DNA of 64,000 bases from Mustelus asterias (taxonomy: Eukaryota). Both the position numbers and the translations under genes were made by a program. This document shows positions 13,358-62,047 of this stretch, piece after piece. Under the pieces are notes generated by a model. The model searched no databases. It was not told the origin of the DNA and saw only the letters and a program-made list of their open reading frames with translations. The DNA is taken from positions 62,001-126,000 of the forward strand of contig NW_027590699.1 in assembly GCF_964213995.1 (NCBI RefSeq), written 5' to 3'. The number at the start of each line of letters is the position of its first letter. Positions within the stretch are counted from its first letter, which is position 1.

Positions 13358-13412
13358 GCCACATGTCAGTGCCATCGCCCGACTCCAGCCCAGTCTCAGC
13401 TCATCTGGAACC

Positions 13413-13603: not shown

Positions 13604-13959
13604 GGGGCTTCACTCTCCGATCACAATCCCTGCCGGCCTCCCACATGCAGCCTCAATGGCGGCAGTCAGCCCGGGTCTAACACTACAAGCTGCCGCTCCA
13701 TTTGGTACAAAGGGGGGGAACCGGGAAGTTCATTTCCGGGGTTTGGGTTTGAACAACATGTTTACAAAGCCTCTCGACCCACCCGCCACATTTATCATTC
13801 CCCGCACGCCGCCCTCTACCTCGTATTGATCTCGCTTCCAAACTAAAACCGGCCGTCCGTCGCCATTACCCGCAGTGATGTGGAGATGCCGGCGTTGGAC
13901 TGGGGTAAACACAGCAACAAGTCAAACAACACCAGGTTAAAGTCCAACAGTTTATCTGG

Positions 13960-14182
13960 TTCACCCGCACTGCGCATGCTTCAGGTCCCGCCCCTCATTC
14001 ATTCCGATTGGTTGGAGGACCAGCCGCTCCCATTCGGTCCTCCAGTCCCGCCCCTCATTCACTCCGATTGGTTGGAGGACCAGCCGCTCCCGTTCGGTCC
14101 CCCAGCCCCCACCCCTCTTCCTATTGGTCCGGAGCTGCCGTCAATCAGTCCCCGGGCATTGTGATGTGGAGCATGCGCAGTG
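13960..14182 (+). promoter_or_regulatory. ZNF promoter cassette (NRF1-like, GC box, CCAAT boxes, TGATTGAC)
   Basis: ACTGCGCATGCT...CCCGCCCCTCATTC..GATTGGTTGGAGGACCAGCCGCTCC (x2)...ATTGGTCCGGAGCTGCCGTCAATCA...GCATGCGCAG. Homologues are at 20010-20150, 32060-32195, 32625-32775 and 46175-46315. Confidence 0.65.
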
Positions 14183-15168
14183 TCATTGCTGTCCTTGGCG
14201 CTTGTTTGTCCCGGAGAAGCGGAGTCAGCGTTAGGCGGTGGCTGGGAGGATTTGGAAACACTTTGTGGATCCGCAAACCCTTCAGAATCATTGTCAGCTC
14301 CCTGGTTTGCAGCTGCGGGGCTTCTCCCTCCCTCCCTCCCGGGAACAGGCCCAGGTTAACGGCCCCATCCTGGCTCAGCCACTGGAGGATGGTTCACATC
14401 AGAGGATGGGGGAGGGGGACAATAAATAAGAGGTTACACTTTGGCCTCAAATCAATGAGGACTCTGATCTCTGGGAAGGAAGGAAACCCTGGGAGGTGGG
14501 CGGGGAGGATTCACAAACACCCGCTGGAGGCCCCAACACCCCCAATAAGACCCATTGGTTTTATTGTCAGTCTGCAGACAGGAGCTGGAGAACTGAATCC
14601 AGACCGAGGAGAGGGAGGGAGAAAACTGGGAGTGGAGGAAAGAAATGGTGAGATGGGTTTGGATTTCAGCCCAGGGAGGAGGGAGAGTGTGTGGGACGGG
14701 GATTTACTGATTTGGGGGAACAAGAAAGGAAAAAATGTTCCAGAGAAACTAGAATTGTCTGTTCAGAGTTTGTATCGTGTTCTGACAGTGATGACTTTTC
14801 TAAACTGTTTTTACAGGATATTGGAAGTGAAAGATTGGCAGACAGAAAACTCAAACCGGACATCACATCTGACAAAGTCATTCAGTTCCTTCGGAGCTGA
14901 ATATCATCGGTCTTTGAATATAGAAAGAGAAATATTTGTCTGTTCTGCCTGTGGGCAAATAAATTAAACATCAGTATGACCGGAAAAGCATCGAGACAAA
15001 CACACACCCGAGTGAGAGTGTTCCAGTGAACTGAATGTGGAAAGAGCTTTAACCAGTTACACAGCCTGAAAAAACATCACAGTTCACAGCAGGGTGAAAC
15101 TACGTGTATGTTGTGTGTGTGGATGTGGCTTGAACTGATCATCCAACCTGGAGAAACACAAGGGCACC

Positions 15169-16315
15169 ATGGAGAAACCGTGGAAATGTGTGGAGTGCGG
15201 GAAAGGATTCGGTTTCCCATCACAACTGGAAGTTCATCGGCGCAGTCACACTGGGGAGAGACCGTTCACCTGCTCTGTTTGTGGGAAGGGATTCACCCAT
15301 TCATACAACCTTCTGACTCACCGACGGGTTCACACTGGGGAGAGGCCGTTCACCTGCCCTGTGTGTGGGAAGGGATTCACTCGCTCATCCCACATTGTGA
15401 CACACCAACTTGTTCACACAGATGAGAGAATGTTTACATGTTCTGACTGTGAGAAGAGTTTTAAATGCAAAAAAGATCTGCTGACGCACCAACGTATTCA
15501 CACTGGGGAGAGACCATTCACCTGCTCTGTGTGGGAAAGGATTCATTCAGTCATCCCACCTGCAGACACATCAACTTGTTCACTCTGATAACAAACTTTT
15601 TAATTGTTCCCACTGTGCGAAGAGCTTTAAAAACAAAAAGGATCTGCTGACGCACCAATATACTCACACTGGGGAGAGGCCATTCACCTGCTGTGTGTGT
15701 GGGAAGGGATTCAGCCGTCCACCTGCCCTATTGAACCACCAGAGAATTCACACTGGGGAGAGGCCCTTCACCTGCTCAGACTGTGGGAAGGGATTCATTA
15801 ATTCATCCAACCTTCTGATACACCAGCAGCTCCATACAGGGGATCGACCGTTCACCTGCTCTGAATGTGGGAAGAGATTCACCCGTTCATACAACCTTCT
15901 GACACACCAGCAGGTTCACAGTGAGGAGATGCCATTCACTTGCTCCGTGTGTGGGAAGGGATTCACTCGTTCATCCAACCTATTGAATCACCAGCGAGTT
16001 CACACTGGGGAGAGGCCGTTCACCTGCTCCATGTGTGGGAAGGGATTCAGTCAGTCATCCAACCTGCTGACACATCAGAGAGTTCACAGTGGGGAGAGGC
16101 CATTTACCTGCTCTGTCTGTGGGAAGGGATTTTCTCATTTATCTTATCTTCTGAAACACCAGCGAGTTCACACTGGGGAGAGGCCATTCACCTGTAATGT
16201 CTGTGGAAAGGGATTTATTCAGTCATCCCACCTGCTAACACACCGGCGAGTTCACAAGGGACTGCAAGGTTTGGATTCTACACTTATTGATGCTGTTAAT
16301 CATATCCAGGTCTGA
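15169..16315 (+). pseudogene. 13-finger C2H2 ZNF with a single 2-bp frameshift (ZNF-B left copy)
   Basis: ORFs 15169..15588 and 15695..16315 join into one array if GT is restored in the GT run at ~15530. The right-arm paralog has TCTGTGTGTGGG there. This could be a real lesion or an assembly indel. Confidence 0.75.
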
Positions 16316-19300
16316 ATCATCTTCACTCTGACTTTTTTCTTCTGTTGAGGTTTGATATTCTGAATAAATGTGAAATAGACATTTGATTGAACCATTGTTG
16401 TAGATTTTTGTCTTTTCCATTTGAGTGTTTAACGTCACCAGGCTGGAGCTCAGAAAGGGCAATCTGAGGGAGGGTCATACAGTAGGAACAGAACTTCATT
16501 CTTGACCCAGTCCTTCAGGGTCACGCTGAGAGGGACAAACAGCACTTTGGTCTTTTTCGTCACTTTTCACTGACAGCAAAGTCCCCGTGTGGGTGAATCC
16601 TGAGGTGTGTGAGAAATGTGTCCCAGTCGTTCTTTTCCATGGTTCCGAGCTCCCAGACACAGAACAGAAGCTCCTTTACAACTGTGTTTAGAGTCAGGAA
16701 GAACAATGGTGAATGCGGGAAACGTGCTGTCAAAGATTGGTGTAAAACTGGGATCTATTCCTGACTGAGAGTGAAACGGCAGGTTTAGGTTTCCAGACTT
16801 AGAATGAAGAAAAGTGTAAAACATTTTAATGTGTGTGTGTGTCAGTCCTGGTTTATTGAACAGAAACTGGCTTCAAATAAATTGGTGGAAGTCTGCATTA
16901 AAGTAGCAGCTGGAGAAGTTCAAAGGAGCCTGTTAACTGCTGGGACAATGAGACAACAATTTGATTCCCAGATAGAGAAGGAGCTGCAGTGTGTGTCCAA
17001 GAATTCTCAGTTTTGTTGATGTGTGCTTCCCATACACTATCCTTTTAAATAAACCTCACTCCTATCAGCCTTTAACCATTATAAACAGAACAGAGAGAAG
17101 CTGAGCAGCAACAGAGCCCTGACTGACCATTTAAGAATGAGTGATGTGTTCAGCTGAAGTTTCCTGTTGGTAGTTTTCTGGGTGATCTCCTTATTTTGAT
17201 CATTCTCAGTGACCCCTGGGTGTGAACCTGCTCTCCTCTCTTTCAGACATTCACTCACTCAACATCTCCTCTCTCTCAGAAACTCAATCACTTAACCTCT
17301 CTCATCTCTCTAACACTCACTGAACATCTCTCTCTCTCTCTCTCTCCAGGCATTCACTCACACGTTACCTTCCATCTCTCTTACATTCTAACCTCGCTCC
17401 TCTCTCATTCACTTAACCTCTTCCCTCTCAGATACTGTGTTCATCACTTAATGTCTCTCTATCTTTCTTTCAAACACTCACTCATTTAACCTTCCTATTT
17501 CAGATCTGCTTAAACTTATTCATTGTTTTCTCTCTCTCGTTACCTCTCTCTGAAAAAGCACAAACACACTTCATCTCTCTTCACTGTCTGAGAAAACATC
17601 TAATTGATGGAGATTCAATCCTCTCTGTTTCTCTCTCCCACTTCCTCTGACAGGCCCTGACTCACTTTAAATCTCCTCTTTTCTAATAACCCTCTTTGGG
17701 AAAACTCATTTGTTCTCTAATTCCTCCTCATTTCTCCCAGTGATGACCCTCAGTCCATCTCCCAATTCAGTGAATGTGTTAAAAATCCAAATAATCTCCT
17801 TTCTTTATTGTTTAAAATGGGAATGGAGCTGAATGTAATGCTGAGACCGGCAGCAATCTGTGTGGTTGTTCTTGATGCTGTCAGAGTGAGTTCACCCTCA
17901 CAGGAAGGAAGACTGTTCACGGTGATAACATCAAACTGACGCCGGCTGTTTCATTCTCAGGTAACACAACTTCCTGTTTCTCTGCTGCCGGCTCCAAACC
18001 TCACATCTCACTTCTGAGCAGAAAATAAATCCAGGGACCACAATCTGGTGAGAACATCTGTCAATGCGGCCGATATCTGTCCACAGAGTCAGGGCAGAGT
18101 CACACAGGTCACATTGTGGTGACATTTACAAATGAACCAGTTATTTCTGTTCAGAGTTTCCATTCGCAGATAAAACCAGCTGTGTCTGTGGATCAGTTAC
18201 TGAGTTCCCTCTGTTCCCTGTAGCTGGGAACTGATAGCCTGCTCCCTTATATTTTATATCATTCTCTCTGTATTGCTTGTTTCCTCTATTTCTCAGCTTT
18301 TATCTTTGACCTTCCTCATCTTTCTGCTTTTTAAAATCTTCCTCAATTTTTCTCTCAGTCTTTCCGTCTCTCTCTTCCTCTGTAACTTTCTCAGGCTCTG
18401 TGTGTTCCTATTTAATCGACATGTTCAAAATCATGAAGAGTTTCTGATTGATTATAGAAGGAAAAACAGGGAGAGAAGCAGAAAAACCCAGCAGATCCGG
18501 CGGCATCTGTTGAGAGAGAAACAGTTAACATTTTGAGTCCATATAATTCTTCAGGGCAGGAAAAACATGGGTTATCCATCTTAGATTAGGGAATGTGATG
18601 GGGCGATTTAATAGAGATGTTTCAAATGACAAATGATTTATGATAGTTTCTCTCCATTGACACTATCTCCCAGGAGCAGGAAGTCTGTCGATGGTGAGAA
18701 TCTATTTCCCAGGTGCAGGAGGGTCTGTAAGCAGAGGATACAGAGATTTAATATAATTGACAACAGAACTGGAGGGGGTGATAAGGAAAATTTTTTACAC
18801 AATAACTGGATATGATCTGGAATGCACAAACTGACAGGTGCTAGAAGCAGGTTTAATAGCAACTTTCAAAGGGAATTGGATAAATACTTGCAGAAGGTAA
18901 ATTGGCAGAGTTATGGTCAATGGGATTAATTGGACAGTTCACTCATCTTTGTGACATTCTGAATGTTTCTCTCCTGAGGTTTTAATGTTTGATCTTTTCA
19001 GTCACAATGTGTCTCAAACAGAAGATTAAACCATTGGGTTTGATGAGCCTTCAGATCTGTTTCCTGTGTGTAACTTGAGAACTGCAGATAACCATGAGAA
19101 GGAACTGATTATTATCAGTTCCTCGAACAGATACACCTCAGATATCAGAAATCCCTGGAGTTCCCCATGTCCTCATTATTCTCCCCTTGAGTATAACAGC
19201 TCTCAGTCAGGCCGAGTCAGTCGCATGTGCCTCTGTCATGATGTTTCCACTTGTATTTTATCACTCACCTCCCAGTGACACTCACCATAACACAGACACC

Positions 19301-19778
19301 TTAAAATATCATTGTTCCCTTACACTTTGTCCTCCTATTATAATCAAATGTTTGTTGGGCCTCTTGTCTCCCTTAATGTCAGATTATCTGCAGTTAAAAT
19401 GACCTCAGAGACACTGAAACCGACTTCAGTGATTATTATACCAGACTCCAATCAGCCCCAGGAGCTGCAGTTGTAAAATACAGTAAGAGTTTTAACAACA
19501 CCAGGTTAAAGTACAGCAGAAATACAGCAGAATGTAAAATACAGCAGAATTGGAATAACAGCCAGGTTATTGTCTGATACTGACAGTGGCAGAGTAACAC
19601 ACACCGGAATCTAAATACATTATATCAATGGACCATGACTCACTCACACTATCAAATGAAACCTAAACTTTGGTTCTGGTGCACGTGATACTGACTGTAT
19701 TACCATTACATTGGATCTAATGCTGTGTTTACTAACAGACTGCAACGTGACTCTTATTATTTGAACAAACATTGTATC

Positions 19779-19960
19779 TGTTACACTCAGAGTAAGTCAG
19801 TGCTTTGCTGTGTTGTCTCTGTGCTCCATCCCCACTCTGATTGTATTGGAGCCTGTGTGTGTCACTGTTACACTCAGAGTAAGTCAGTGCTTTGCTGTGT
19901 TGTCTCTGTGCTCCATCCCCACTCTGATTGTATTGGAGCCTGTGTGTGTCATTGTTACAC
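19779..19960. repeat. 87-bp tandem repeat, 2 units
   Basis: TGTTACACTCAGAGTAAGTCAGTGCTTTG... starts at 19779 and 19866. Confidence 0.9.
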
Positions 19961-20009
19961 TGAGACTCTGTCACTGTGATTATTGGACAAACAGCAAGTT
20001 ACCGTCACA

Positions 20010-20430
20010 ATGCCCAGCTGATTGACGGCAGCGCGGACCAATGGGAAGAGGGGGCAGTACTGGAGGCCCGATCTGGAGCGGTCGGTCCTCCAACCAATAG
20101 AAGTGAATGAGGGGCGGGGCCAGCTTTGACTTGAGCATGCGCAGTGTGAGTAATGGCAATGGAGGCGGCTTTTGTTTTGGGCTCGGAAATCTGTTCGAGG
20201 TGATTGGCGGTACGGAGAGAGCAATGGATCGCCCAGGTGGGTGGAAACGCTGCGTAAGCATGTTGTGTAAGCCGCAAACCGCGGAAGAGAGCTTCCCGGA
20301 CCCAGTTTGTACCGAGCAGGACTGCAGCTCCTCATGTTCGTTAACGTTCGCCATCTTTATTGGGGGCAATATGCAGCAGTGCGCACGTGCGGCCGCCATG
20401 TCTGTAGAGGGCAATGTTGTCAATCAGTGG
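20010..20430. promoter_or_regulatory. CpG-island promoter cassette, probably bidirectional
   Basis: Reverse-oriented homologue of ~13650-14165: TGATTGACGG-9nt-CCAAT, GGGGCGGGG, GCATGCGCAG, plus YY1-like GCCGCCATG. Confidence 0.6.
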
Positions 20431-20597
20431 GAGGCGCTTGTTCCCCAGTGTTCAGAATGGAGACAACTTGTCCATCAAACTGCATCAACCCTCTGAGTCC
20501 CAATATCTTATTGATGAGGCAGAGCAGTGACAGAGAAGGAAAAAGAAAGGGAAAGTAAAACAGAAAATGCTGGAAAATCTCAGCAGATTTGATAGCA

Positions 20598-21189
20598 TAG
20601 AACATAGAATGTTACAGCGCAGTACAGGCCCTTCAGCCCTCGATGTTGCGCCGACCTGTGAAACCAATCTAAAGCCCATCTAATCTACACTATTCCAATA
20701 CCATCCATATGTTTATCCAATGACCATTTAAATGCCCTTAATGTTGGCGAGTCCACTACTGCTGCAGGCAGGGAATTCCACACCCTTACTACTCTCTGAG
20801 TAAAGAACCTACCTCTGACATCTGTCCTATATCTATCACCCCTCAATTTAAAGCTATGTCCCCTCGTGCTAGCTATCACCATCCGAGGAAAAAGGCTCTC
20901 ACTGTCCACCCTATCTAATCCTCTGATCATCTTGTACGCCTCTATTAAGTCACCTCTTAACCTTCTTCTCTCGAATGAAAAATTACACCATAGATAAGTA
21001 AGCCCCACCAACGCCTCTACTTTCTCAGAAGACTAAGGAAATTCGGCATGTCCGCTACGACTCTCACCAACCTTTACGGCTCCCGAGTCAAGGTCAGGGT
21101 CGGAGGATAAACATTCTCTCCACCTCCGGCACCACCCCCGCGCCCCCCCCTCCCCCCGTCCCCGCACGCCCCCAAAGGTCTACACTCAC
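20598..21189. mobile_element. Composite insertion: CR1 3' end (minus, 20598-20980) plus a Rex1/Babar-like scrap (plus, ~21005-21080)
   Basis: ORF 20685..21011 is the CR1 C-terminus. ~21007-21078 encodes HQRLYFLRRLRKFGMSATTLTNLY. The block is absent from the right arm (~43120-43130). Confidence 0.7.
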
Positions 21190-21675
21190 TGGGGAGTGAG
21201 AATAGAACCAACGTTTCGAGACTGGACGACCCATAGTCAGAGTGTACACGCGTAAACAGAGCATGTAAACTTCAACACCCTCCACGTACCCTTGTACACC
21301 TCTATCAATCTACTTTGCTCCAAGGAGAACAACCCCAAGTTATCCAGCCTAACATTGTAACTATAATTCCTCATCCCTGGAACCATTTTGATAAATCTCC
21401 TCTGCACCCTGTCAAGGAGCCTCGCATCCTCCATAATGTGTGGTGTTCACTGGTTTGCACAGACCCAGGTATTCTGTGTTCCTGTCTGTGATCTCATCAC
21501 ATACTTACAATTGCACAGTGACACCACCCCCACTCCCTGGGGATTTCCCCAACTGGGAGATTTTTCTCTGATGCCAATGCTTCTGATATCTTTCCAGCTG
21601 CAGGCTCCAGCAGGAGATTTTAATATTAAAATCAGTTAAATTGTTTCAGAGGTGAGTGTTTGTGACCATTCACAG

Positions 21676-23185
21676 GCACGGGTTCTCGTCATAAACCAGC
21701 TGGTCGCCTCCATGCTGTGGTACCGGCTGGTCCCTTTGACCCCTCCCCCTGGCTTTGTCGCTGATATCCAGAAAACCCTCCTGCGGTTCTTCTGGGGCAA
21801 TCGACTGCACTGGGTCCCTGCTGCGGTTCTGCATCTCCCGCTTGAGGAGGGCGGACAAGGTCTGGTGTGCCTCCGCACTCAGATAGCGACCTTCCGCCTC
21901 CAGGCCCTGCAGAGGTACCTTTACGTTGAGCCCCCTCCACAGTGGTGTGCCATGGCGACGTATTTCTTCCGCCACTGGCACAGCCTCAATTATGACGTGC
22001 AGCTCCTGCATATCGAACTGGGGCGTGCTCCGACCGCCCTGCAGGAGTTGCCCGTCTTTTCCAAGGACCTCCTCACTGTCTGGAACAAGGTCGCCTCGCG
22101 ACGCAGCTCCCCCCCCGTCAGGAGTAGCGGCTCTTGTGCGAGAGCCGCTGCTCAGGAATCCGCTCCTCCAGCCGTATAACTTCAGGTGGCTGGCGGAGAG
22201 GAGGGCTGTGGACGCCGGGGTGACCAGAATCGGGGACGTGCTCGATGGCGGAGGGGCGGGCTGGATGAGCCCCCACGTGCTGGCTGAGCGCGCGGGGACG
22301 TCCGTCCGGCACGCGGCCAAAGCCATCCTAGACCTTAGGACGGTCGTGCTCGGCCCCAAAAGTGCACGCAAACTTGAGGCGGCGCAGGCGTGCGGTGGGA
22401 TCCCGCCCGAGCGTTCCCCTGTTCGGGCGGAATTCCACATTGGCCCAAAACTTCAACCCTCCTCCTCGGGTCAGGTGCCCCACAGCCTGAGCCGTCTCGC
22501 GGAAATGTCCTCCGTGCCTTTTTCTACCGCGCGGAGGCGTTTCCTGTGCGGGCTGCTGCTGCACACCTTCCACTATCGCCTGTCGCCCGGATACACCTTG
22601 GCGGGCCTTGTTTCCGTAGAGGTCCCTCTATGGAGAGATTGCCCCAATTACATCGGGGACCTGGGGTGAAGGGTGATGCATGCAGCAGTTCCGCACAACT
22701 GTAGGATTCACTGGTTCACGGGCTATGAAGCTTGCCCTTTCTGTGGCCTTGTGAAGTCCGTGGACCATGTCAATGTTTGGTGCCTTAGGTGGCACTCTCT
22801 TTTTGTTGGGGTCGGGATGGCGACCTCCTCGTGAACCTGCTCCTGGGCCTGGCGAAACGCGCCATTTACCGGTCCAGGCAGCGGGCGATCGAGGGGGCCG
22901 TCCATCCTGACTGTCTGCCCCTCTACCGCAGCTACGTTCGCGGCCAGGTGTCCCTGGAGAGGGAGCATGCGGTGTCCACGGGCGCGGTTGACGCCTTCCG
23001 TGCCCGTTGGGCACCGCAGGGGTTGGGGTGCGTTATTGACCCGAATAATCACATTTTAATTTGATGTTTTTAAGTTTCCTTTGTACTTTGATTTTGTTCG
23101 GGCTGTTCCCCCTCCTTTTGGGGAGCTGCCCCTTTTACTTTGTCCTGATTTAACTTGAGTTTGTTTATTTGTTTTGACCTAAAAG
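21676..23185 (+). mobile_element. Tx1-clade (L1 superfamily) LINE, 5'-truncated and frameshifted
   Basis: RVLVINQLVASMLWYRL...LHLPLEEGGQGL, a C-terminal CPFCG..SVDHV zinc knuckle, a GC-rich body and a T-rich 3' UTR. Confidence 0.8.
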
Positions 23186-23338
23186 AGGCCAACATTCGTG
23201 AGTAAAACACTTTCTTTTCTCATTCTGGGGGAAATTGGGGACTTGCAGCAACTGAAGGGAAAAGACGTGAATCCAGGGAGGCTGCAGACTCTGTGAAGAT
23301 TGGCCCAGGTCTCTCTCTCTCTCTTAAAGACATTGATA

Positions 23339-23820
23339 TAGAAACATAGAAGATAGGAGCAGGAGGAGGCCATTTGGCCCTTCGAGCCTGCTCCGCCATT
23401 CATTACGATCATGGCTGATCATCCAACTCAGTAGTCTCATCCTGCTTTTTCCCCATAACCTGTGATCCCATTCGCTCCAAGTGCTTTATCCAGCCGCCTC
23501 TTGAATACCTTCAATGTTTTGGCACCAACTACTTCCTGTGGTAATAAATTCCACAGACTCACCACTCTTTGGGTGAAGAAATGTCTCCTCACCTCCGTCC
23601 TAAATGGTCTACCCTGAATCCTCAGACTGTGACCCCCGGTTCTGGACTCCATCGGGAACATCCTCCCTGCATCTATCCTGTCTCGACCTGTTAGAATTTT
23701 ATCAGTCTCTATGAGATTCCCCCCTCATTCATCTGAACTCCAACGAAAACAATCCTAACCTGGTCAATCTCTCCTCCTACATCAGTCCCGCGATTCCCTG
23801 AATCAGCCTGGTGAACATCC
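23339..23820 (-). mobile_element. CR1 LINE 3' end
   Basis: ORF 23437..23661 (RTGGHSLRI...FFTQRVV) and tail TAGAAACATAGAAG. Confidence 0.85.
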
Positions 23821-25493
23821 TTTGCTCCCTCAGCTTGACACATTTATTTGTCTGTCTAAAAGGATGGTCTTTTTCCTCATGTTCACATTAAAGGACAGCT
23901 TTCCTCAGGAGATGGCTGACATTTAAGGGGACAGAACGTTAATATAGGACAGAGATATGTCTGGTGTTATTATATGGTACCCAGATTAGATATATTATTT
24001 ATGTTTCTGTAATAAAATACTTTTATTATTAGTTCTTGCATTGTAATATAATGCTGTAGCGATGTTATACATTTCCAGTCATAAAGTCATTACAGCACAG
24101 AAGGAATCCATTCGGTAACTCGAGTCCATGCTGACTCTCTGTATAACATTCCAGTCCCAATCCCCCTCTATATCCCCATTCTCCTGAAAGTTTATTTCCT
24201 TCAAATGCCCAACCACTTTCATTTTTAAATAGAATCCATAGATATGGATGGAGAGTTACAACTTTTTGGGAATGAAATAGGAAAGAATGTTCCATAGAAA
24301 CTAGAAATGTCTGCTCTGAATTTCTATCCTATACTGACTGTGATGACTTTTGCAAACTCATTTCATAGGATATTGAACGAGGAATCACAGGCAAAAATCT
24401 CAACCGTCACATCTAGGCAGAGTCATATTCCTTGGGATCTGAATATCTTGTAATATGGAACTGTAGCTACGTTATATATTTCCAGACATCTCTTCCCTCA
24501 GAGGGTTGTTAGTCTTTTGGATTTCTCTTCCACAGGGACCAGTGGAGGCTGAGGATCATTGAATATATTCCAGTTAGACAGATCTTTGACTGACAAAGGT
24601 GTCAAGAGTTATGGGGAACAGACAAGAAGATGGAGCAAAAGCTAATATGTGAGGGGATTTCTTCACTCAAGGATGTGCTAAAGCTTTGGAATTCTCAACC
24701 CCTGAGGACAGTGAAGCCTCAGTCATCAACTATTTTCAAGAGAGAGATTGATTGGTTTCTAGATATTGAAGCTATCAAGGGATATGGGTTTAGTGTGGGG
24801 AGAATGATGCTGAGGTAGATGAACGAATTATCTCATTGAATAGTTTAAAAGGCTCGATGGACCAAATGGCCGACTGCAGCTCCAATTTGTTATGGTCTCT
24901 GTGTCCAGGACAGGAAGCAGTGAGCATGGATCTGTCAATCAGCCTCAATCAGCACCTTCAGGAGAATTGGGAGGGTGAATATTAGATACAGCAGAGTGAG
25001 AATGGAGGGAGAGTGTGTGGGATGGAGATTCACAGCTTTTTGGGACTGAAATAGGAAAGAATGTTCCATAGAAACTCGAATTGTCTGTTCTGAATTTCTA
25101 TCCTGCACTGACACTGATGACTTTTGTAAACTCATTTTCCAGGATACTGAAAGAGGAATCACAGACTGAAATCTCAAACTTCACGTCTAGATCTGACAGA
25201 GTCATATTCCTTGGGAGCTGAATATCATCGGCCTTTGAATCCAGAAGGAGAAATGATTGCCCGGTCTGTTGATTTGAAAAGATTTCAAACATCAGTGTGA
25301 CTGGAAAAGCATCGACACACTGCCACACTAGAGTGAGAGTGTTCCAGTGCACTGACTAAAGAGCTTTAAGCAGTTACACAGCCTGAATAAATATCACACC
25401 ATTCACAGCGGGGAGAGACTGTACCCGTGTTCTGTGTGTGGACGAGGCTTCAACTGATTGGTCACCCAAGGGAGAGGCAAGGACACCTGCACC

Positions 25494-26252
25494 ATGGAGA
25501 AACCATGGAAATGTGTGGACTGTGGGAAGAGGTACAGAGTCCCATCTCAGCTGGAAGCTCATCGGCGCAGCCACACTGGGGAGAGGCCGTTCACCTGCTC
25601 TCAGTGTGGGGAGGGATTCACTCGGTCATCCGAACTGCAGAGACACCAGCGAGTTCACACTGGGGAGAGACCGTTCACCTGCTCTCAGTGTGGGGAGGGA
25701 TTCACTCAGTCATCTGACCTGCAGAGACATCAGCGAGTTCACACTGGGGAGAGGCCGTTCACCTGCTCTCAGTGTGGGAAGGGATTCACTCGATCATCCT
25801 ACCTGCAGTCACACCAGCGAGTTCACACTGGGGAGAGGCCATTCACCTGCTCTCAGTGTGGGAAGGGATTCACTTGTTCATCCAGCCTGCGGATGCACCA
25901 GCGAGTTCACACTGGGGAGAGACCATTCACCTGCTCTCAGTGTGGGGAGGGATTCACTTGTTCATCCCACCTGCGGAGGCACCAGCGAGTTCACACTGGG
26001 GAGAGACCATTCACCTGTTCTCAGTGTGGGAAGGGATTCACTCGGGTATCCAACCTGCGGGCACATCAGCAAGTTCACACTGGGGAGAAACCGTTCACCT
26101 GCTCTCAGTGTGGGAAGGGATTCACTCGGTCATGCAACCTGCGGACGCACCACCGAGTTCACACTGGGGAGAGGCCGTTCACCTGCTCTCAGTGTGGGAA
26201 GGGATTCAGAGTTTCATCCGACCTACTGAGACACCAACAAGTTCACAAGTGA
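25494..26252 (+). CDS. C2H2 zinc-finger protein, 9 fingers (ZNF-A paralog 2)
   Basis: ACCATGGAGAAACC start, 9 intact fingers, near-identical 84-bp backbone. Confidence 0.85.
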
Positions 26253-26346
26253 TTCCAGGGGTTGGATTCTGCTGTTATTGTTTCTGCTCTCAATTCCATC
26301 CAGGACTGCATTTTGTTCATTCTCACAGTTGGTCAATGGGGAGGAT

Positions 26347-26750
26347 GCTCTGATTGTGGGAAGGGATTCACTGATTCATCCAACCTGCTGAAACACCAGA
26401 GAATTCATAACGGGGAGAGGCCATTTATCTGCTCCGAGTGTGGGATGGGATTTACTCAGTCATTCAACCTGCTAAAACACCAGCGAGTTCACACTGGAGA
26501 GAGGCCATTCACTTGCTCCAGTTGTGGGAAGGGATTCATTGATTCATCCACCTTGCTGAGACACCAGCGAGTTCACACCAGGGAGAGACCATTCACCTGC
26601 TCTGATTATGGCAAGGGATTCAGTCAATCATCCAACCTGGTAAAGCACCAGCAAATTCACACTGGGGACAGGCCATTCACCTGCTCCGTGTGTGGGAAGG
26701 GATTCACTCAGTCACCTCACCTGCTGAAACACCATCATGTTCACGAGTGA
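26347..26750 (+). pseudogene. Orphan 5-finger C2H2 array fused behind the ZNF-A2 stop codon
   Basis: CSDCGKGF... begins abruptly after 3'UTR-homologous sequence. One finger has C>Y, and there is no ATG upstream of its first finger. Confidence 0.7.
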
Positions 26751-27769
26751 CTGCAAGGACTGAATTTTGCTGTTAATCACATCGAGGTCCCAACCATTTT
26801 CATTGGTGTCTGTTTCTGCTGATGTTAATAAACCCTGGCCCAGTTGTAAGATTTGTATTGTGGATTGTCTTGTCTGAGTCCTGAACTCGTAAATAAAAAC
26901 AAGAAGTGCTGTAAAAACTCAGCAGGTCTGACAGCATCTCTGGAGAGAGAAACAGAGCTAATGTTTTGACACTGAAGAAGAGTCACATTCAACTGGAAAC
27001 ATTAACTGTTCCTGTCTTTACAGATTCTGTCAGACTTACTGAGATTTTGCAGCAACTTCTGTTTTTAGAATGACGGTGAATGCTGGATACATGAATCAGA
27101 GATTGGTGTAAAACTGGGATCTGCTCCTAAATCAAAGTGAAACAGCAGGTTAAAGTTTCCAGTCTGAAAAGTACTTTGGTTATTATACTATATCTACCAT
27201 TTTAAGGCTGGTTTTAACTCATTTAAAATAAACCTATTTAAAATATATTTGTTCAAGTCAGTATTAAAATACGAGTTGGATGAGTTCACAGGAGCCTGTT
27301 AACCGCTGGGACAATTATTCAACAAACATTGGATCTCCAGATAGAGAAGAAGCTGCAGTTTGTTTGCAGGAATTCCCTGTTTTATTGATGTGCGTGTGTT
27401 AGACATCAGGATAACTAAAACTACACAAACCTGGACATCAATGGTGATCTGATTGACAGTTACTCTGGGAATCACTCCCACTGTGAAACTTCAGCACTGA
27501 CACTGCTGAATTTTGTCGGCTCAGGGAGTGGGACCTCCAGGAGTGGACTGTAAAAAAGCTGGGTTTCAGTATCCTGACTAATATATGGTGAGGAACCAGA
27601 AAAATCCTTACTGAGGAACTGCCTGGGGTTTTACCAGTGTCGGTTCAGGGGCGAATGATTCCTGACTCCCTGAAATGTCTGATATTGAACCCAGTTTGGA
27701 ACAAGATTCATTCAGTTTCCAGGAGAATAGGGACAAATATCACCCACAACTGAGAGAGAGAAAAACAGC

Positions 27770-31139: not shown

Positions 31140-31955
<816 letters not shown>

Positions 31956-41620: not shown

Positions 41621-43461
41621 CTTCAAAATCCAATAATATTCAGGTTATGATAAACTCCACAACTCTGTCAGATTTTGATGTGATGCTTGGGTGGAATTTC
41701 CCAACTGCAAATACTCCTCTTCTAATTGCCTGTGAAATTGATTTAAAACGGAAAAAAGAGAGTGAGAAAGAGCCCACAAAAACACAAAGGCAGATTGTGA
41801 AATTGAGCTGAATGAATCTGGTAATTTGTGGGGCCGGCACAAGGAAAAAGTGACCATGAAAATTGCTGAATTGTCATAAAAACCAACTGGTTTACGCATG
41901 GCCGTACCTGGGGTTAGAGAAAATGGGCAGGGTTTTTGCTCGCTCTCTGCGCTGTGTTTTGTGGAGATGGGAGGCCGCAGGCCGCCTGCTGGTGACAGGA
42001 TCTTATGATCTCACCGTTGTCAATGGGGCTTCCTGTTGAACACACCCCTCACTCTGGGAGACCCGCAGCAGGGGTGCACTGTCGGCGGAACCGTAAGATC
42101 CTGCCGGTGAGAACAGCAGCAAGATTTCGACGAATGTTTCATGATGTACATAATGATTTCCAGGAGTAAAAACAGTGCAGAATTTGATGGTCAATGTAAG
42201 ATTAGAAGTGGAAGAGAAATGGACAAGAACACAGAAATAAACCATTCCTGACTGAAAAATACTGTGGGTTAGGTTGATCGGCCATGGTAAATTGTCCCGT
42301 AGTGTCAGGGGATTAGCAGGGTAAATACATCGGATTACAGGGATAGGGCTTGGTTGGGATTGTTGTCGATGCAAGCTCAACAGGCCAAATGGCCTCCTGC
42401 ACTGTAGAGATTCTATGATTCTAAGATAAAGCTACTAAACCAGCAGCATAACTAAAATACAACCATTATTAGAGGCAGAGGAAGTTAGACAATGACAGAG
42501 AGGTGATCAGGGAGGGCAGAGGTGAAACAGAGCAATGAATGGACATGGAATCAGATCCACAGTAGTCAGAACAGCCCCAGAGAGGTGGAACCAGAGTACA
42601 GATAACAGAGCACATCATTTAAAACTCTAAATTGTGGGTGAATGGTCACAAACACTCACCTCTGAAACAATTTAACTGATTTCAATATTAAAATCTCCTG
42701 CTAGAGCCTGCAGCTGGAAAGATATCAGAAGCATTGGCATCAGAGAAAAATCTCCCATTTGAAGAAATCCCCGGGGAGCGGGGGTGATGTCACTGTGCAA
42801 TTGTAAGTGTGTGATGAGATCACAGACAGGAACACAGAACATCTGGGTCTGTGCAAACCAGTGATCACCACACATTATGGAGGATGTGAGGCTCCTTGAC
42901 AGGGTGCAGAGGAGATTTATCAAAATGGTTCCAGAGATGAGGAATTATAGTTACAATGTTAGGCTGGATAACTTGGGGTTGTTCTCCTTGGAGCAAAGTA
43001 GATTGATAGAGGTGTACAAGGGTACATGGAGGTGTCAAAGTTTACATGCTCTGTTTACACGTGTACAAGCTCTGACTATGGGTCATCCAGTCTCAAAACA
43101 TTGGTTCTATTCTCTCTCCACAGATGCTGTCAGATCTGCTGAGATTTTCCAGCATTTATTGTTTTTACTTTCCCTTTCTTTTTCCTTCTCTGTCACCGCT
43201 CTGCCTCATCAATAAGACATTGGGACTCAGAGGGTTGATGCAGTTTAATGGACATGTTCGCTTCTCGGCCTTTTGGCTAAGATCAAGTGTAGTATTGACA
43301 TGCTGTGCTTGGTTGAAGTCATGAGGTTACATTTTAGCTGCATTTGAAGCAATTTTTAAAAGCGGCATCTCGGCCTTTTGGCTAAGATGCAAATGAGATC
43401 AAGCCTTGGAGGAGGAGCTATGCCTACTCCAATCAGCTTGGATCAGGTAGATCAAGCCCAA

Positions 43462-43890
43462 TAAGAAGTTTAACAACACCAAGTTAAAGTCCAACAGGTT
43501 TATTTGGTAGCAAATGCCACGAGCTTTCGGAGTGCTGCCCCCTCGTCAGGTGGAGTGGAGATCTGCTTACAAACAGGGCATGATGTGGACATGCCGGCGT
43601 TGGACTGGGGTAAGCACAGTAAGAAGTCTCACAACACCAGGTTAAAGTCCAACAGGTTTATAAACCAGTTGGACTTTAACCTGGTGTTGTGAGACTTCTT
43701 ACAAACAGGGCATACAGAGACATAAACTCAATTTACAGAATAATGATTGGAATGCGAATCCTTACAGGTAATCAAGTCTTAAAGGTACAAACAACGTGAG
43801 TGGAGAGAGCGTTATCACAGGTTAAACAGACGTGAATTGTCTCCAGACAGGACAGCCAGTGAGATTCTGCAAGTCCAGGCAAGCTGTGGG
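43462..43890 (-). mobile_element. PLE 3' end with hammerhead motif (43517-43553), containing a nested fold-back mini-PLE
   Basis: Homologous to 12875-13170. The nested insert 43581-43697 has TSD CTTACAAACAGGGCA. Confidence 0.78.
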
Positions 43891-43891
43891 T

Positions 43892-45712
43892 TTAGAACAT
43901 AGAACATAGAACATAGAACATAGAAAGCCACAGCACAAACAGGCCCTTCGGCCCACAAGTTGCGCCGATCACATCCCCACCTCTAGGCCTATCTATAGCC
44001 CTCAATCCCATTAAATCCCATGTACTCATCCAGAAGTCTCTTAAAAGACCCCAACGAGTTTGCCTCCACCACCACCGACGTCAGCCGATTCCACTCACCC
44101 ACCACCCTCTGAGTGAAAAACTTACCCCTGACATCCCCCCTGTACCTACCCCCCAGCACCTTAAACCTGTGTCCTTTCGTAGCAACCATTTCAGCCCTTG
44201 GAAATAGCCTCTGAGAGTCCACCCTATCCAGACCCCTCAACATCTTGTAAACCTCTATCAGGTCACCTCTCATCCTTCGTCTCTCCAGGGAGAAGAGACC
44301 AAGCTCCCTCAACCTATCCTCATAAGGCATGCCCCCCAATCCAGGCAACATCCTTGTAAATCTCCTCTGCACCCTTTCAATGGCTTCAACATCTTTCCTG
44401 TAATGAGGTGACCAGAACTGCGCGCAGTACTCCAAGTGGGGTCTAACCAGGGTCCTATAAAGCTGCAGCATTATCTCCCGACTCCTAAACTCAATCCCTC
44501 GATTAATGAAGGCTAGTACGCCATACGCCTTCTTGACCGCATCCTCCACCTGCGAGGCCGATTTAAGAGTCCTATGGACCCGGACCCCAAGGTCCTTCTG
44601 ATCCTCTACACTGCTAAGAATGGTACCCTTCATTTTATACTGCTGCTCCATCCCATTGGATCTGCCAAAATGGATCACTACACACTTATCCGGGTTGAAG
44701 TCCATCTGCCACTTCTCCGCCCAGTCTTGCATTCTATCTATGTCTCGCTGCAACTTCTGACATCCCTCCAAACTATCCACAACACCACCTACCTTGGTGT
44801 CGTCAGCAAACTTACCAACCCATCCCTCCACTTCCTCATCCAGGTCATTTATGAAAATGACAAACAGCAAGGGTCCCAGAACAGATCCCTGGGGCACTCC
44901 ACTGGTCACTGACCTCCATGCAGAGAAAGACCCCTCCACAGCCACCCTCTGCCTTCTGCAGGCAAGCCAGTTCTGGATCCACAAGGCAACAGCCCCTTGG
45001 ATCCCATGCCCTCTCACTTTCTCAAGAAGTCTTGCATGGGGGACCTTATCGAACGCTTTGCTGAAGTCCATATAGACCACATCCACCGCTCTTCCTTCGT
45101 CAATGTGCTTGGTCACATTTTCAAAGAACTCAACCAGGCTCGTAAGGCACGACCTGCCCCTGACAAAGCCGTGCTGACTACTTTTGATCATACTAAACTT
45201 CTCTAGATGATCATAAATCCTGTCTCTCAGGATCCTCTCCATCAACTTACCAACCACTGAGGTTAGACTCACCGGTCGGTAATTTCCCGGGCTGTCCCTG
45301 TTCCCTTTCTTGAATATAGGGACCACATCCGCAATCCTCCAATCCTCCGGAACCTCTCCCGTCTCCATCGACGATGCAAAGATCATCGCCAAAGGCTCCG
45401 CAATCTCCTCCCTCGCCTCCCACAGTAACCTGGGGTACATCCCATCCGGTCCCGGCGACTTACCAACCTTGATGCCATTCAATAGTTCCAACACATCCTC
45501 TTTCTTTATGTCCACATGCTCGATCCTTTCTGTCCTCCGCAATCCAGCAGTACAACCACCCAGATCCCTTTCCACCGTGAATACCGAGGTAAAGTATTCA
45601 TTAAGCAGCTCCGCCATTTCTAACGGTTCCGCACAAACTTTTCCCCCTTCACCTTTTAAGGGTCCTATGCCTTCACATCTCATCCTTTTACTCTTGACAT
45701 ATTTGTAGAAAG
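43892..45712 (-). mobile_element. Young 5'-truncated CR1 LINE with an uninterrupted 564-aa RT ORF
   Basis: ORF 43989..45683 and a (TTCTATG)n tail at 43892-43925. Confidence 0.95.
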
Positions 45713-45879
45713 CAGACAGATCAAGCCCAAGACAGGAGGTGAGAGCCCTGTCTTGTCAGCTTGGATCGGGAATGTCTCAACTTGTTGAGACTCTGAATTG
45801 GACTTAATTTGATTGAATTGGAATAGAAACAAAAAAAATGGACAAGCTGTCTCCATTCTGAACTGGGGGAACAAGCTCC

Positions 45880-46315
45880 TCCCACTGATTGACAACATTG
45901 CCCTCGACAAACATGGCGGCCGCACGTGCGCACTGCTGCATATTGCCCCCAATAAAGATGGCGAACGTTAACCCGGGACGAACATGAGGAGCTGCAGCCC
46001 TGCTCGGTACAAACTGGGTCCGGGAAGCTCTCTTCCGCGGTTTGCGGCTTACACAACATATTTACGTAGCGTTTCCACCCACCTGGACGATCCATTGCTC
46101 TCTCCGTACCTCCAATCACCTCGAACAGATTTCCGAGCCCAAAACAAAAGCAGCTGTCCATCGCCATTACTCTGTGCGCATGCGCCGATCAAAGCTGGCC
46201 CCGCCCCTCATTCGCTCCTATTGGTTGGAGGACCGGCCGCTCCAGATCGGTCCTCCAGCACTGCCCCCTCTTCCCATTGGTCCGCGCTGCCGTCAATCAG
46301 CTGGGCATTGTGACG
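45880..46315. promoter_or_regulatory. CpG-island promoter cassette (mirror of 20010-20430)
   Basis: TGCGCATGCGC, CCCCGCCCC, ATTGG boxes, CCGTCAATCA. Confidence 0.6.
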
Positions 46316-58961: not shown

Positions 58962-61900
58962 TAGAACATAGAACATAGAACATTACAGCGCAGAACAGGC
59001 CCTTCGGCCCACGATGTTGCACCGACCAGTTAAAAAAAAAAAAAACTGTGACCCTCCAACCTAAACCAATTTCTTTTCGTCCATGAACCTATCTACGGAT
59101 CTCTTAAACGCCCCCAAACTAGGCGCATTTACTACTGATGCTGGCAGGGCATTCCAATCCCTCACCACCCTCTGGGTAAAGAACCTACCCCTGACATCGG
59201 TTCTATAACTACCCCCCCTCAATTTAAAGCCATGCCCCCTCGTGCTGGATTTCTCCATCAGAGGAAAAAGGCTATCACTATCCACCCTATCTAAACCTCT
59301 AATCATCTTATATGTTTCAATAAGATCCCCTCTTAGCCGCCGCCTTTCCAGCGAAAACAATCCCAAATCCCTCAGCCTCTCCTCATAGGATCTCCCCTCC
59401 ATACCAGGCAACATCCTGGTAAACCTCCTCTGCACCCTCTCCAAAGCCTCCACATCCTTCCTGTAATGTGGGGACCAGAACTGCACACAGTACTCCAAGT
59501 GCGGCCGCACCAGAGTTGTGTACAGTTGCAACATAACGCTACGACTCCTAAATTCAATCCCCCTACCAATAAACGCCAAGACACCATATGCCTTCTTAAC
59601 AACCTTATCTACTTGATTCCCAACTTTCAGGGATCTATGCACACATACACCTAGATCCCTCTGCTCCTCCACACTATTCAAAGTCCTCCCGTTAGCCCTA
59701 TACTCAACACATCTGTTATTCCTACCAAAGTGAATTACCTCACACTTCTCCGCATTAAACTCCATCCGCCACCTCTCGGCCCAACTTTGCAACCTGTCTA
59801 AGTCTTCCTGCAAACTACGACACCCTTCCTCACTGTCTACCACACCACCGACTTTGGTGTCATCAGCAAATTTGCTAATCCACCCAACTATACCCTCATC
59901 CAGATCATTAATAAATATTACAAACAGCAGTGGCCCCAAAACAGATCCCTGAGGTACACCACTTGTAACCGCACTCCATGATGAATATTTACTATCAACC
60001 ACCACCCTCTGTTTCCTATCCGCTAGCCAATTCCTGATCCAATTTCCTAGATCACCCCCAATCCCATACATCTGCATTTTCTGCAGAAGCCTACCATGGT
60101 GAACCTTATCAAACGCCTTACTAAAATCCATATATACCACGTCCACTGCCTTGCCCCCATCCACCTCCTTGGTCACTTTCTCAAAAAACTCAATAAGGTT
60201 AGTAAGGCACGACCTACCTGCCACAAAACCATGCTGACTATCACCTATCAATTCATTACTCTCCAAATAACTATAAATCCTATCCCTTATAATTTTTTCC
60301 AACATCTTGCCGACAACAGAAGTGAGACTCACCGGTCTATAATTCCCGGGGAAGTCTCTGTTCCCCTTCTTAAACAATGGGACAACATTCGCTAACCTCC
60401 AATCTTCTGGTACTATACCAGAGGCCAACGACGACCTGAAGATCAGAGCCAGAGGCTCTGCAATCACTTCTCTTGCCTCCCAGAGAATCCTTGGATAAAT
60501 CCCATCCGGACCAGGGGATTTATCTATTTTCAGACCCTCCAGAATATCCTGCACATCCTCCTTATCAACTGTAATACTGTCTATTCTACTCCCTTGCAAC
60601 CCAGTGTCCTCCTCAGCTATATTCATGTCCCCTTGCGTGAACACCGAAGAGAAATATTGGTTCAATGCTTCACCAATCTCCTCCGGTTCCACACATAACT
60701 TCCCTCTGCCATCTATAACTGGCCCTAAACTTGCCCTAACCAACCTTCTGTTCTTGACATACCTATAGAACGCCTTAGGATTCACTTTAACCCTATCCGC
60801 CAAAGTCTTCTCATGTCCCCTTTTAGCCCTTCTAAGCTCGCTCTTCAACTCCCTCTTAGCCAATCTAAAGCTTTCTAGTGCACTACCCGAGTGCTCACGT
60901 CTCATCCGAACATAAGCCTCCTTTTTCTTTTTAACCAACAAAGAAACTTTTTTGGTGCACCACGGTTCCCTAGCCCTACCAATTCCTCCTTGCCTGACAG
61001 GGACATACCTATCACAGACTCGCAGTAGCTGCTCCTTGAAAAAACTCCACATGTCGGACGTTCCCAGTCCCTGTAATCTCCTAGTCCAACCTATGTTTCC
61101 TAATTCTCTCCTAATAGCCTCATAATTACCCTTCCCCCAGCTAAAACCACTGGCCCGAGGTTCATGCCTATCCCTTTCCATCACTAAGGTGAACGTAACC
61201 GAATTGTGGTCACTATCACCAAAATGCACACCAACTTCCAAGTCTAGCACCTGGTCTGGCTCATTTCCCAGCACCAGATCCAATATAGCCTCACCTCTAG
61301 TTGGCCTGTCTACATACTGAGTCAAAAAACCTTCCTGCACGCTTTGAACAAAAACTGACCCCTCTAACGAGCTAGAGCTATAACAATTCCAGTCAATATT
61401 AGTCAAGTTAAAATCCCCCATAACAATTGCCCTATTACTTTCACTCCTAAGCAGGATTGACTCCGCAATCCTTTCCTCAACCTCTCTAGAACTTTTAGGA
61501 GGTCTATAAAAGACTCCCAACAGGGTGACCTCTCCTCTCCTATTTCTAATCTCCGCCCATACTACCTCAACAGATAAGTCCTCATCAAACCTCCTCTCTG
61601 ACACTGTGATACAATCTCTGACCAATAATGCTACCCCTCCCCCTCTTCTACCTCCTTCCCTACTTCGACTAAAACATTTGAACCCCGGGACCTGCAGCAT
61701 CCATTCCTGCCCCTGCTCTATCCATGTCTCTGAAATAGCCACAACATCGAAGTCCCAGGTACTGATCCACGCTGCAAGTTCACCCACTTTATTGCGAATA
61801 CTCCTGGCATTGAAGTATACACATTTCAAACCCTGCTCCACCCCACCTCTGCAATGCCGTGCATTGCAGTCCCCATCCATGCATCCCTCACTTTCAGCCC

Positions 61901-62047
61901 CACTACTCAGGATCCCTCCCCCCCCCCGAATCAGTTTAAACCTCCCTGCATGGCCTTAGCAAATTTACCCCCCAGGATATTGGTCCCCTTCTGATTAAGG
62001 TGTAGACCATCCTTCTCATAGAGGTCACACCTTCCCCAGTACGAGCC
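58962..62047 (-). mobile_element. Near full-length young CR1 LINE: ORF1 C-terminus plus intact ORF2 (APE endonuclease and RT, 59061-61880)
   Basis: The 939-aa ORF has NARS, SETW, YRPP, GDFN, SDH and RT motifs. The ORF1 end DGLHLN..GLN* is at 61933-62047. It has a (TTCTATG)n tail and flanking TTTAG at 58960 and 62048. Confidence 0.97.

Follow-up and report, generated by a model that had tools for sequence, protein, structure and literature searches.

A U2-headed retroposon family in Mustelus asterias, likely copied by a Keno-type LINE and likely transcribed from captured U2 promoters

How can a retroposon that begins with a piece of U2 snRNA be transcribed, when snRNA gene promoters lie upstream, so that every jump leaves a U2-headed SINE without a promoter? 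The question is raised by a locus in the 64,000-nt stretch of Mustelus asterias DNA analysed here as a whole (the window; GCF_964213995.1, NW_027590699.1, positions 62,001-126,000, forward strand). The window carries one copy, of subfamily A, of a ~310-bp U2-headed retroposon family, its halves parted by a nested insertion. The elements of this locus are as follows:

43248..43257, + strand: 5' TSD copy, 10 bp; its final base occupies the position of U2 nt 1
43258..43295, + strand: U2 snRNA head, exact nt 2-39
43303..43328, + strand: complement of U2 nt 11-36, forming a fold-back arm; in folds of uninterrupted family copies it is predicted to cover the branch-point sequence and the stretch that pairs with U6
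43351..43359, + strand: AATTTTTAA, a single change from what we take to be the Sm consensus; contains a T5 run
43368..43388, + strand: second U2 piece (nt 7-27), inside an extended stem-loop I
43387..43394, + strand: ATGCAAAT octamer, presumably an snRNA enhancer motif (putative function)
43396..43444, + strand: hairpin A (GATCAAGC ... TCA GCTTGG)
43449..43461, + strand: hairpin B, 5' arm; the nested insertion duplicated these 13 bp as its TSD
43462..45730, no strand assigned: nested younger insertions, outside the SINE proper
45718..45767, + strand: hairpin B, which duplicates hairpin A (0/500 shuffles as high)
45774..45791, + strand: hairpin C
45792..45837, + strand: TTGA-repeat 3' region and A-rich tail
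45838..45847, + strand: 3' TSD copy
20466..20475, - strand: empty site, in the paralogous inverted arm of 94% identity

The original prediction had described a SINE headed by exact U2 nt 2-39, and the match at 43258-43295 is indeed exact. That the U2 part ends at nt 39 is true of the window copy, but family members keep U2 identity to nt 40. Rfam scores U2 at 50.6 bits over 43257-43455, with the identities nearly all in the first 39 nt. Most other structural details were found where they had been placed: the repeat of U2 nt 7-27 at about 43369; the recurring motifs, AGATCAAGCC three times (43396, 43449 and 45718) and CAGCTTGGATC twice (43434 and 45757); two 3' hairpins (45729-45754 and 45774-45791) with an A-tail; and a flanking TSD, put at 8-10 bp and in fact of 10 bp (43248-43257 and 45838-45847). 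Uninterrupted copies elsewhere, such as those at G000:C10:55495303 for subfamily A and G000:C4:119793308-119793629 for subfamily B, join both halves, confirming a single ~310-bp element under the nested inserts, which consist of a short repeat that occurs at other places in the window and a LINE fragment on the minus strand, in which a 588-aa frame is RT-like. The empty site in the left arm is present as well, but at 20466-20475 rather than 20467-20476, one base off; each TSD copy differs from it by one base, and 7 bp are exact.

The element belongs to a family. One 25-nt family motif has 4,895 exact matches in the genome, against none for the reversed control, so that the copy number is at least 4,895, whereas a one-off chimera would have left one or two copies. 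TSDs flank 65 of 138 copies (5-11 in mismatched controls). Members are ~310 bp long and A-tailed, and their U2 nt 1-40 are identical to the U2 genes of the same genome. In our sample, which the searches used had enriched for full-length and U2-linked copies, 119 near-full copies fall into 21 clusters; two young subfamilies, A and B, are ~82% alike, and each has copies 97-99% identical. The non-autonomous U2-headed family that had been proposed is thus real, large and recently active. A genome-wide A>G excess (113 vs 91 T>C) was not significant (p = 0.14).

With no internal Pol III promoter in its head, the family is not a classical SINE with a tRNA, 7SL or 5S head. Transcription by Pol III is unlikely, because there are four internal T4+ runs and no tRNA head: a T5 run, such as that in AATTTTTAA, would terminate Pol III, and ARAGORN detected no tRNA in 3/3 loci. 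In five loci, the only Rfam family over the cut-off was U2, with no U1, ribozymes or other families.

The closest descriptions are those of SINEU-1, -2 and -3, crocodilian snRNA-headed SINEs, of which Kojima 2015 (PMC4494074), as far as its account goes, reports none outside crocodilians. Our family shares with them a U2-derived head, repeated U2 pieces, a length below 500 bp, poly(A), TSDs, tandem insertions, oligo-T runs that exclude Pol III, and a Tx1 partner able to carry a U2 head. Thus, the features that characterize SINEUs, namely a U1 or U2 head, <500 bp with poly(A) and TSD, subfamilies, and no Pol III promoter, are found here; for mobilisation by the Tx1 clade, which we infer, the evidence is the common target. 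The crocodilian partner, Tx1-Mar, is described as targeting a Mariner transposon, Mariner-N4_AMi (PMC4494074), whereas the present partner targets U2 and its SINE homes into U2 genes. Moreover, copies of our family stand at +1 of U2 promoters, whereas no promoter is reported for the crocodilian elements, whose transcription is called an open question in Kojima 2015 (PMC4494074) and not yet demonstrated in Kojima 2018 (PMC5786205). The two origins are probably independent; in the literature, taken without Repbase or Dfam, we found no U2-headed SINE family outside crocodilians.

The genome carries a candidate partner, a U2-targeting Tx1 LINE of the Keno type that is itself U2-headed. Its ORF1 has RRM/CCHC and its ORF2 APE and RT domains; a Tx1-named relative is 40% identical, and the name Keno is absent among the 120 matches listed. 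The LINE is near-intact, with no copy established as having both frames fully open. In U2 arrays it stands directly before U2 nt 38, as would be expected from accounts of Keno, a member of the Tx1 clade that inserts in U2 genes, and of Utopia at the same site (PMC4640811, PMC4494074). It resembles Keno in its APE endonuclease, its RT and the U2 sequence from nt 38 onward at its 3' flank, and differs in also inserting dispersed full-length copies with their own TSDs and in having a likely non-autonomous passenger, of which there is none in the Keno literature examined. Among 16 dispersed U2-headed copies, starting at U2 nt 1-12, eight have a readable 3' end; six of these carry their own TSD and none is followed by U2, so that specificity for U2 is not strict. 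Four of the 16 are in direct tandem with SINEs.

SINE tails abut the same base. The 29 A-tail/U2 junctions include 15 annotated ones (seven SINE tails, seven Keno tails and one that is neither), and the remaining 14 fall within an 8,035-bp Keno array. A second junction pattern gave 29 matches, 17 of them SINE tails and 12 due to chance; of the 17, 14, two duplicates among them, run on in U2 past the eight forced bases. Only some 14 of the at least 4,895 SINE copies are at the U2 site. Because SINE tails abut Keno's site at U2 nt 38 and SINE-Keno tandems occur elsewhere, Keno-type proteins likely mobilise the SINEs, which narrows the Tx1 machinery originally proposed to a Keno-type element. The SINE tail lacks similarity to the Keno 3' UTR above shuffles (57-393/500 as high), and therefore much of the copying might be the work of another Tx1 or L1 family.

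The original prediction had also derived the body from the U2-targeting element. This found no support: beyond the U2 head, no alignment to the Keno 5' or 3' UTR exceeded shuffles in 6/6 tests, and an internally deleted form of this LINE, of the SIDE kind, is accordingly rejected. As described for Drosophila, R2 and the R2/R1 SIDEs resemble the present system in that non-autonomous elements reach a multicopy RNA gene by means of a site-specific LINE and depend on the transcription of that gene (PMC3414825). SIDEs are there internal LINE deletions with a self-cleaving ribozyme, confined to rDNA (PMC3414825), whereas the U2-headed SINE shows no Keno UTR homology, is mostly dispersed, and would need no cleavage if its transcripts start at +1.

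Where, then, do transcripts start? Among 75 sites with motifs that we take to be those of U2 promoters, nine have a SINE at +1: 8/17 variant-promoter sites and 1/58 main-promoter sites. Keno follows the promoter at 5/17 variant sites. Promoter function at the SINE +1 sites we infer from position and these presumed motifs. The eight variant-promoter SINEs are 83-94% alike. Their nearest clusters number at least five, and one of the eight matches the dispersed young subfamily B at 99% identity; since they match different subfamilies, SINE source copies have likely resided repeatedly in U2 arrays. Copies of the family do stand behind U2 promoters, but none of subfamily A is among them at any of the 75 sites.

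Seven of the eight are dispersed read-through retrocopies that include promoter DNA. Their transcripts therefore began upstream, which places the source in a U2 array and does not in itself demonstrate initiation at +1. In situ, there are just two promoter-linked copies: C21, of subfamily B and lying in the unit at G000:C21:28064054-28064791 on the minus strand, and the internally deleted C24. Retrocopies carry U2-array DNA either 5' or 3' of the SINE: in L132, L198, L200 and L213, a truncated SINE is followed by U2 38-94, 38-155 or 38-186, without upstream U2, so that SINE-U2 transcripts must have existed. Template jumps to U2 RNA occur as well: in L171 and L274, mid-promoter sequence is joined to U2 12-52 and 6-48. 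We dropped as support the 14 copies with an additional U2 5' piece that ends near nt 50-55, because the search pattern admits only ends at 49-57 and template jumps would account for these pieces equally well.

Our best reading, which we consider probable, is that the ~310-bp elements, in at least 4,895 copies, form a U2-headed non-coding family that inserts into U2 at the same base as Keno, is likely copied by it and is likely transcribed from captured U2 promoters. In the cycle proposed with it, the Keno endonuclease would nick the U2 gene at nt 37/38, and SINE RNA would be reverse-transcribed from its A-tract. The end of the cDNA, being the complement of U2 nt 1-40, would then anneal to the 5' part of the same gene, which would place the full SINE directly after the promoter, with U2 from nt 38 to the end behind it. 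Pol II would initiate at U2 +1 and read through SINE, A-tract and U2 remainder; since Keno here has relaxed specificity, later priming would mostly use the internal A-tract and hit dispersed sites. Dispersed copies would lack a promoter and be dead unless a U2 gene is hit again. Going a step further, we lean slightly towards a self-renewing, promoter-less SINE that homes to promoters: its U2 head would serve as a homology arm and take the place of a U2 gene's 5' end at the Keno cut, the snRNA machinery would transcribe it from +1, the head would be hidden in a fold-back, and each re-entry into a U2 array would found a new subfamily. Such a SINE may also bring its own enhancer, the ATGCAAAT octamer being present in 106/119 family copies.

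A rather unlikely competitor keeps the family and its Tx1 partner, but has most SINE RNA arise when transcription of host genes, Keno or tandem trains reads through into it, with promoter-linked copies as by-products of targeting; in a variant included in the same estimate, this part falls to a promoter within the SINE, around the octamer, that has gone unrecognised. The seven read-through retrocopies, the missing subfamily A behind promoters and the common tandem trains (10/99 neighbour gaps <500 bp; 0.07 expected) all fit it, and flanking transcription has been proposed for crocodilian SINEU-2 (Kojima 2015, PMC4494074). Read-through should, however, leave common 5' flanks, and none abuts the junction among 66 non-U2, non-SINE, non-Keno flanks. 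Starts cluster at U2 nt 1-4 (86 of 118 scored copies, 65 of them at nt 1-2), and recurrent 5' transductions point to U2 arrays.

It is very unlikely that the sequence is a host-maintained U2-like ncRNA, a variant snRNA or splicing regulator whose copies are processed pseudogenes. This would suit the strong fold (z = -4.3; over 30 diverse copies, 97.5% of cells are paired), the Sm-like site near its U2 position, the near-identical sequence in 9 organisms and a weak likeness of hairpin A to the variant-U2 3' half (11 and 27/500 shuffles as high). Nevertheless, no dedicated gene array was seen, the copies linked to promoters have inserted into U2 genes, with U2 from nt 38 onward after them, subfamilies are many and diverging, the body aligns to U2 41-191 no better than shuffles (195/300 as high), and the branch-point sequence is predicted to be masked and is often mutated. 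A variant U2 snRNA gene was likewise rejected: the full-length U2 homology, Sm site and stem-loops II-IV included, that such a gene would show was not found, beyond the weak 3'-half signal.

Independent chimeras, in which the RT jumps each time from a headless RNA to U2 snRNA, are the least probable reading and largely refuted: such jumps do occur in this genome and are described for R2 and SINEU-2 (PMC3414825; PMC4494074), but each subfamily has a fixed junction of head and body and a fixed loop, some subfamilies share changes inside the U2 head, the body contains an arm complementary to the head, and at position-sampled loci 25/34 copies are near full length. Tailless or chimeric U2 retropseudogenes, 30-55-nt 5' U2 fragments fused to other RNA as described in PMC4494074, occur here too; those are one-off, whereas the SINE is self-propagating, with subfamilies.

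The suggestion that the RNA might interact with splicing fared poorly. Pairing of U2 nt 25-36 with the downstream SINE arm has a predicted mean probability of 0.96 (112 copies), against 0.03 in U2 itself, and GTAGTA is retained in only 87/119 copies. Since the branch-point sequence would, by this prediction, be masked by the arm, interference with splicing is unlikely, and the same fold-back likely conceals the U2 head from partners in the spliceosome. This call comes from folding with G-U pairs; in plain alignment, nt 41-110 match antisense U2 weakly (20-162/500 shuffles as high). Two-sided covariation is weak (3/74 pairs; 134/500 shuffles as high), with pair 229-274 alone showing A-U/G-U/G-C across subfamilies, and whole-structure tests are marginal (11-312/500). 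The Keno 5' UTR is predicted to hide its own U2 head likewise, by unrelated sequence.

With this family, SINEU would no longer be confined to crocodilians, and Keno would have its first passenger. If the SINE does home to promoters, the open question of SINEU transcription would be solved, and snRNA-headed SINEs would have a second, independent origin, in cartilaginous fish. Named +1 loci, a near-intact co-resident LINE and young subfamilies make that question directly testable here. The young insertions, numbering in the thousands, lend themselves directly to use as phylogenetic markers. Annotation pipelines will mistake copies for U2 genes, several passing the Rfam cut-off.

Two further observations concern other sequences of the window. 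Its RPS11 copy is nearest, of 14 compared proteins, to that of a stingray (149/158; the next, 148/158), and in a zinc-finger search the top identity among the 120 matches listed was 60%, to a sawshark protein.

The anatomy described in the original prediction is correct: the U2 head (nt 2–39, at 43258–43295) has the same sequence as the genome's own U2 genes, and an A-tail closes the SINE after its interruption. The empty site claimed for the other arm is likewise present.

43462–45730: nested insertion with its own 13-bp duplication; it splits the SINE, which resumes at 45731
Both sides of the SINE: target-site duplication (TSD) of 10 bp
20466–20475: empty site in the inverted paralogous arm, which is 94% identical

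The identical insertion was seen in five further segmental duplicates (loci L001 and L003–L006), which are excluded from every count. The window carries a C2H2 zinc-finger exon cluster in a large inverted duplication (9286–26800 and 33460–58850; arms 94–97% identical), and a GC-rich, promoter-like stretch with CCAAT (45900–46300) lies ~100–350 bp from the SINE. It also holds an RPS11 copy that lacks introns and has an open reading frame (31479–31955), adjoining a 29-bp tandem repeat, and a young LINE (59061–61955) with a 964-aa endonuclease/RT-like frame free of stops, kin to the LINE fragment that interrupts the SINE.

The U2-headed SINE is a real family, a variant of SINEU-type elements. Genome-wide, 4,895 sites match a 25-nt 3′ motif exactly (reversed control, 0), a lower bound on copy number that rules out an element of only one or two copies. 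Searching with the 5′ half brought up 2,228 candidates at first look, and 34 of the 40 scored were unrelated loci at 97–98% identity. A second subfamily, B, is ~82% identical to that of the window copy, A, and just as young. From loci L007–L194, 138 distinct copies were drawn; 119 are near full-length, with 21 clusters at 7% distance. TSDs were read in 65 of the 138, against 5–11 in mismatched-pair controls. Copies also cluster in tandem (gaps below 500 bp in 10/99 cases on contig C1; expected 0.07). At least half of the sampled SINE words are present in 20 public runs (13 studies, 9 organisms), one of them possibly the assembly's source. The host is tentatively placed among cartilaginous fish.

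By the features given in the main text of Kojima (2015), whose supplements may hold further sequences, the family is SINEU-type; it differs from the elements described there in lineage, partner, target, and in having promoter-linked copies. R2 SIDEs, as summarized in the literature, likewise borrow a site-specific LINE and the transcription of a host RNA gene, whereas the present SINE lacks homology to its LINE, the defining SIDE trait. Literature listings and abstracts yielded neither a U2-headed SINE in cartilaginous fish nor a passenger of Keno, though the SINE may have a library entry. In passages of PMC5786205 and PMC7245038, the crocodilian work is still the sole citation for snRNA-headed SINEs, and PMC5499810, on the SINEs of shark and chimaera, nowhere mentions snRNA.

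U2 genes are arrayed on contig C24 in units of 1,833 bp and 8,035 bp, the latter containing a LINE followed by U2 nt 38–191. Its ORF1 (RRM and CCHC) and ORF2 (APE, RT and zf-RVT), together with the insertion site, assign it as Keno-type; a relative, "transposon TX1 149 kDa protein", is 40% identical, and passages of PMC4640811 and PMC4494074 report Keno and Utopia at this same U2 site. The SINE shares this target. Among 29 junctions of an A-tail with U2, 14 sit in the Keno array, and the 15 annotated comprise seven SINE tails, seven Keno tails and one that is neither. At L138, the end of the main array, a SINE lies within a real U2 gene, between a Keno tail and U2 38–191, with U2 38–55 duplicated. 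A second junction pattern gave 29 matches, 17 SINE tails and 12 by chance (reversed control, 8); 14 of the 17 run on in U2 beyond the eight forced bases, two being duplicates. U2-site SINEs thus make up ~0.3% of copies, yet far more than chance for a single site. Separately, 9 of 42 main-array units (C24:43020091–43053400; L287–L290) have a rearranged U2, in which nt 18–36 are duplicated, nt 37–48, including the Keno cut site, are lost, and the branch-point sequence reads GTAGTG; such units may be scars of repair, or alleles that lack the target and were spread by array homogenization. Insertions near nt 28/29 of the SINE's own U2 head (L265, L066 and L113; SINE in SINE, and opposite-orientation Keno in SINE) suggest a second hot spot.

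The specificity of the LINE itself is relaxed, as its dispersed copies show. The LINE is U2-headed, beginning with U2 nt 1–33/35 (L061:1545–1610, L172). Its head junction has 44 matches, 17 in the C24 arrays and 27 elsewhere; the 16 dispersed copies inspected start at U2 nt 1–12, and four stand in direct tandem with a SINE. Where the 3′ end was readable, six of eight have their own TSD and none is followed by U2. This agrees with the passenger SINE being mostly dispersed. The prediction had derived the family from a chimera with a U2-targeting element, but neither tail nor body resembles Keno UTRs above shuffles, which counts against a simple partner story. The Tx1 mobilization proposed with it keeps the support of the shared site at U2 nt 38 and of the tandems, and it is very probable that Keno mobilizes the SINE.

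Capture of a U2 promoter is, judging from the arrangement of copies, the likely main source of SINE RNA; Pol III transcription is unlikely. A variant U2 gene type on contig C21 (28050871–28081852; L156–L159), among Keno copies, is ~88% identical to the main type, with a different upstream sequence and a 450-bp unit; only four copies are intact, the others being occupied by Keno or SINE. Its promoter-proximal motif (n=17) is followed by a SINE at +1 in eight cases, Keno in five and intact U2 in four, while the main motif (n=58) precedes an internally deleted SINE once and U2 otherwise. The eight SINEs, 83–94% identical to each other, are nearest to at least five clusters, and one matches dispersed young copies at 99% identity. 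The C21 copy is in place (promoter, SINE, A-tail, U2 38–189, next spacer). The other seven lie in dispersed, 5′-truncated blocks of array DNA, four of which have readable flanking TSDs (L126, L171, L274 and L131, the last holding two of the copies). The blocks show that source copies of many subfamilies once resided in U2 arrays, but they stem from read-through and are no proof that transcription began at +1. Initiation there has indirect support: starts cluster at U2 nt 1–2 (65/118 scored) or 1–4 (86/118; one mismatch allowed, after removal of 17 truncated and 3 unanchored copies), and none of 66 other SINE flanks is shared. Retrocopies in which a truncated SINE runs into U2 38–94 or 38–186, without upstream U2 (L132, L198, L200, L213), show that SINE–U2 chimeric RNAs had been reverse-transcribed. 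The family thus has copies behind U2 promoters, but none at the 17 variant and 58 main sites is of subfamily A; tandem arrays are frequently collapsed or polymorphic, yet the gap is a real one. As a separate observation, the octamer ATGCAAAT (43387–43394) is present in 106/119 copies; a tandem train would place it ~200 bp upstream of the following copy's start, the usual enhancer distance in snRNA genes.

A single subfamily-A copy folds with z = −4.3. When 30 diverse copies were folded as an alignment, the structure had a long hairpin pairing U2 nt 11–36 with the first arm of the body, a lengthened copy of stem-loop I, two hairpins that are duplicates of each other and another, smaller one; 97.5% of alignment cells are paired, mainly via one-sided changes, and two-sided covariation is marginal. 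When the first 110 nt of each of 112 copies were folded, U2 nt 25–36 were predicted to pair downstream with mean probability 0.96, versus 0.03 in U2, and GTAGTA is kept in only 87/119 copies (13/23 position-sampled loci). Both results speak against the suggested interaction with splicing, and masking of the U2 head is the likelier role. The Keno 5′ UTR is also predicted to fold back over its own U2 head, using different sequence. The hairpin B loop reads TTGCA, similar to U1A/U2B″ binding loops, in several subfamilies (L114, L171, L073) but not in the two youngest.

Two of the 119 copies (L068:1231–1540, L092:946–1270) are A>G hypermutated, with 14 and 13 A>G against 5 and 3 other changes; L181:1230–1519 is weaker. 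Over the three copies with at least five A>G changes, the 5′ neighbor order is U>A>C>G, an ADAR-like pattern. Predicted stems of the SINE show no excess of edited sites. A-to-G clusters are described as an ADAR hallmark (passages of PMC2873906), and the pattern fits SINE RNA edited by ADAR before insertion, these copies being apparent genomic fossils of the process.
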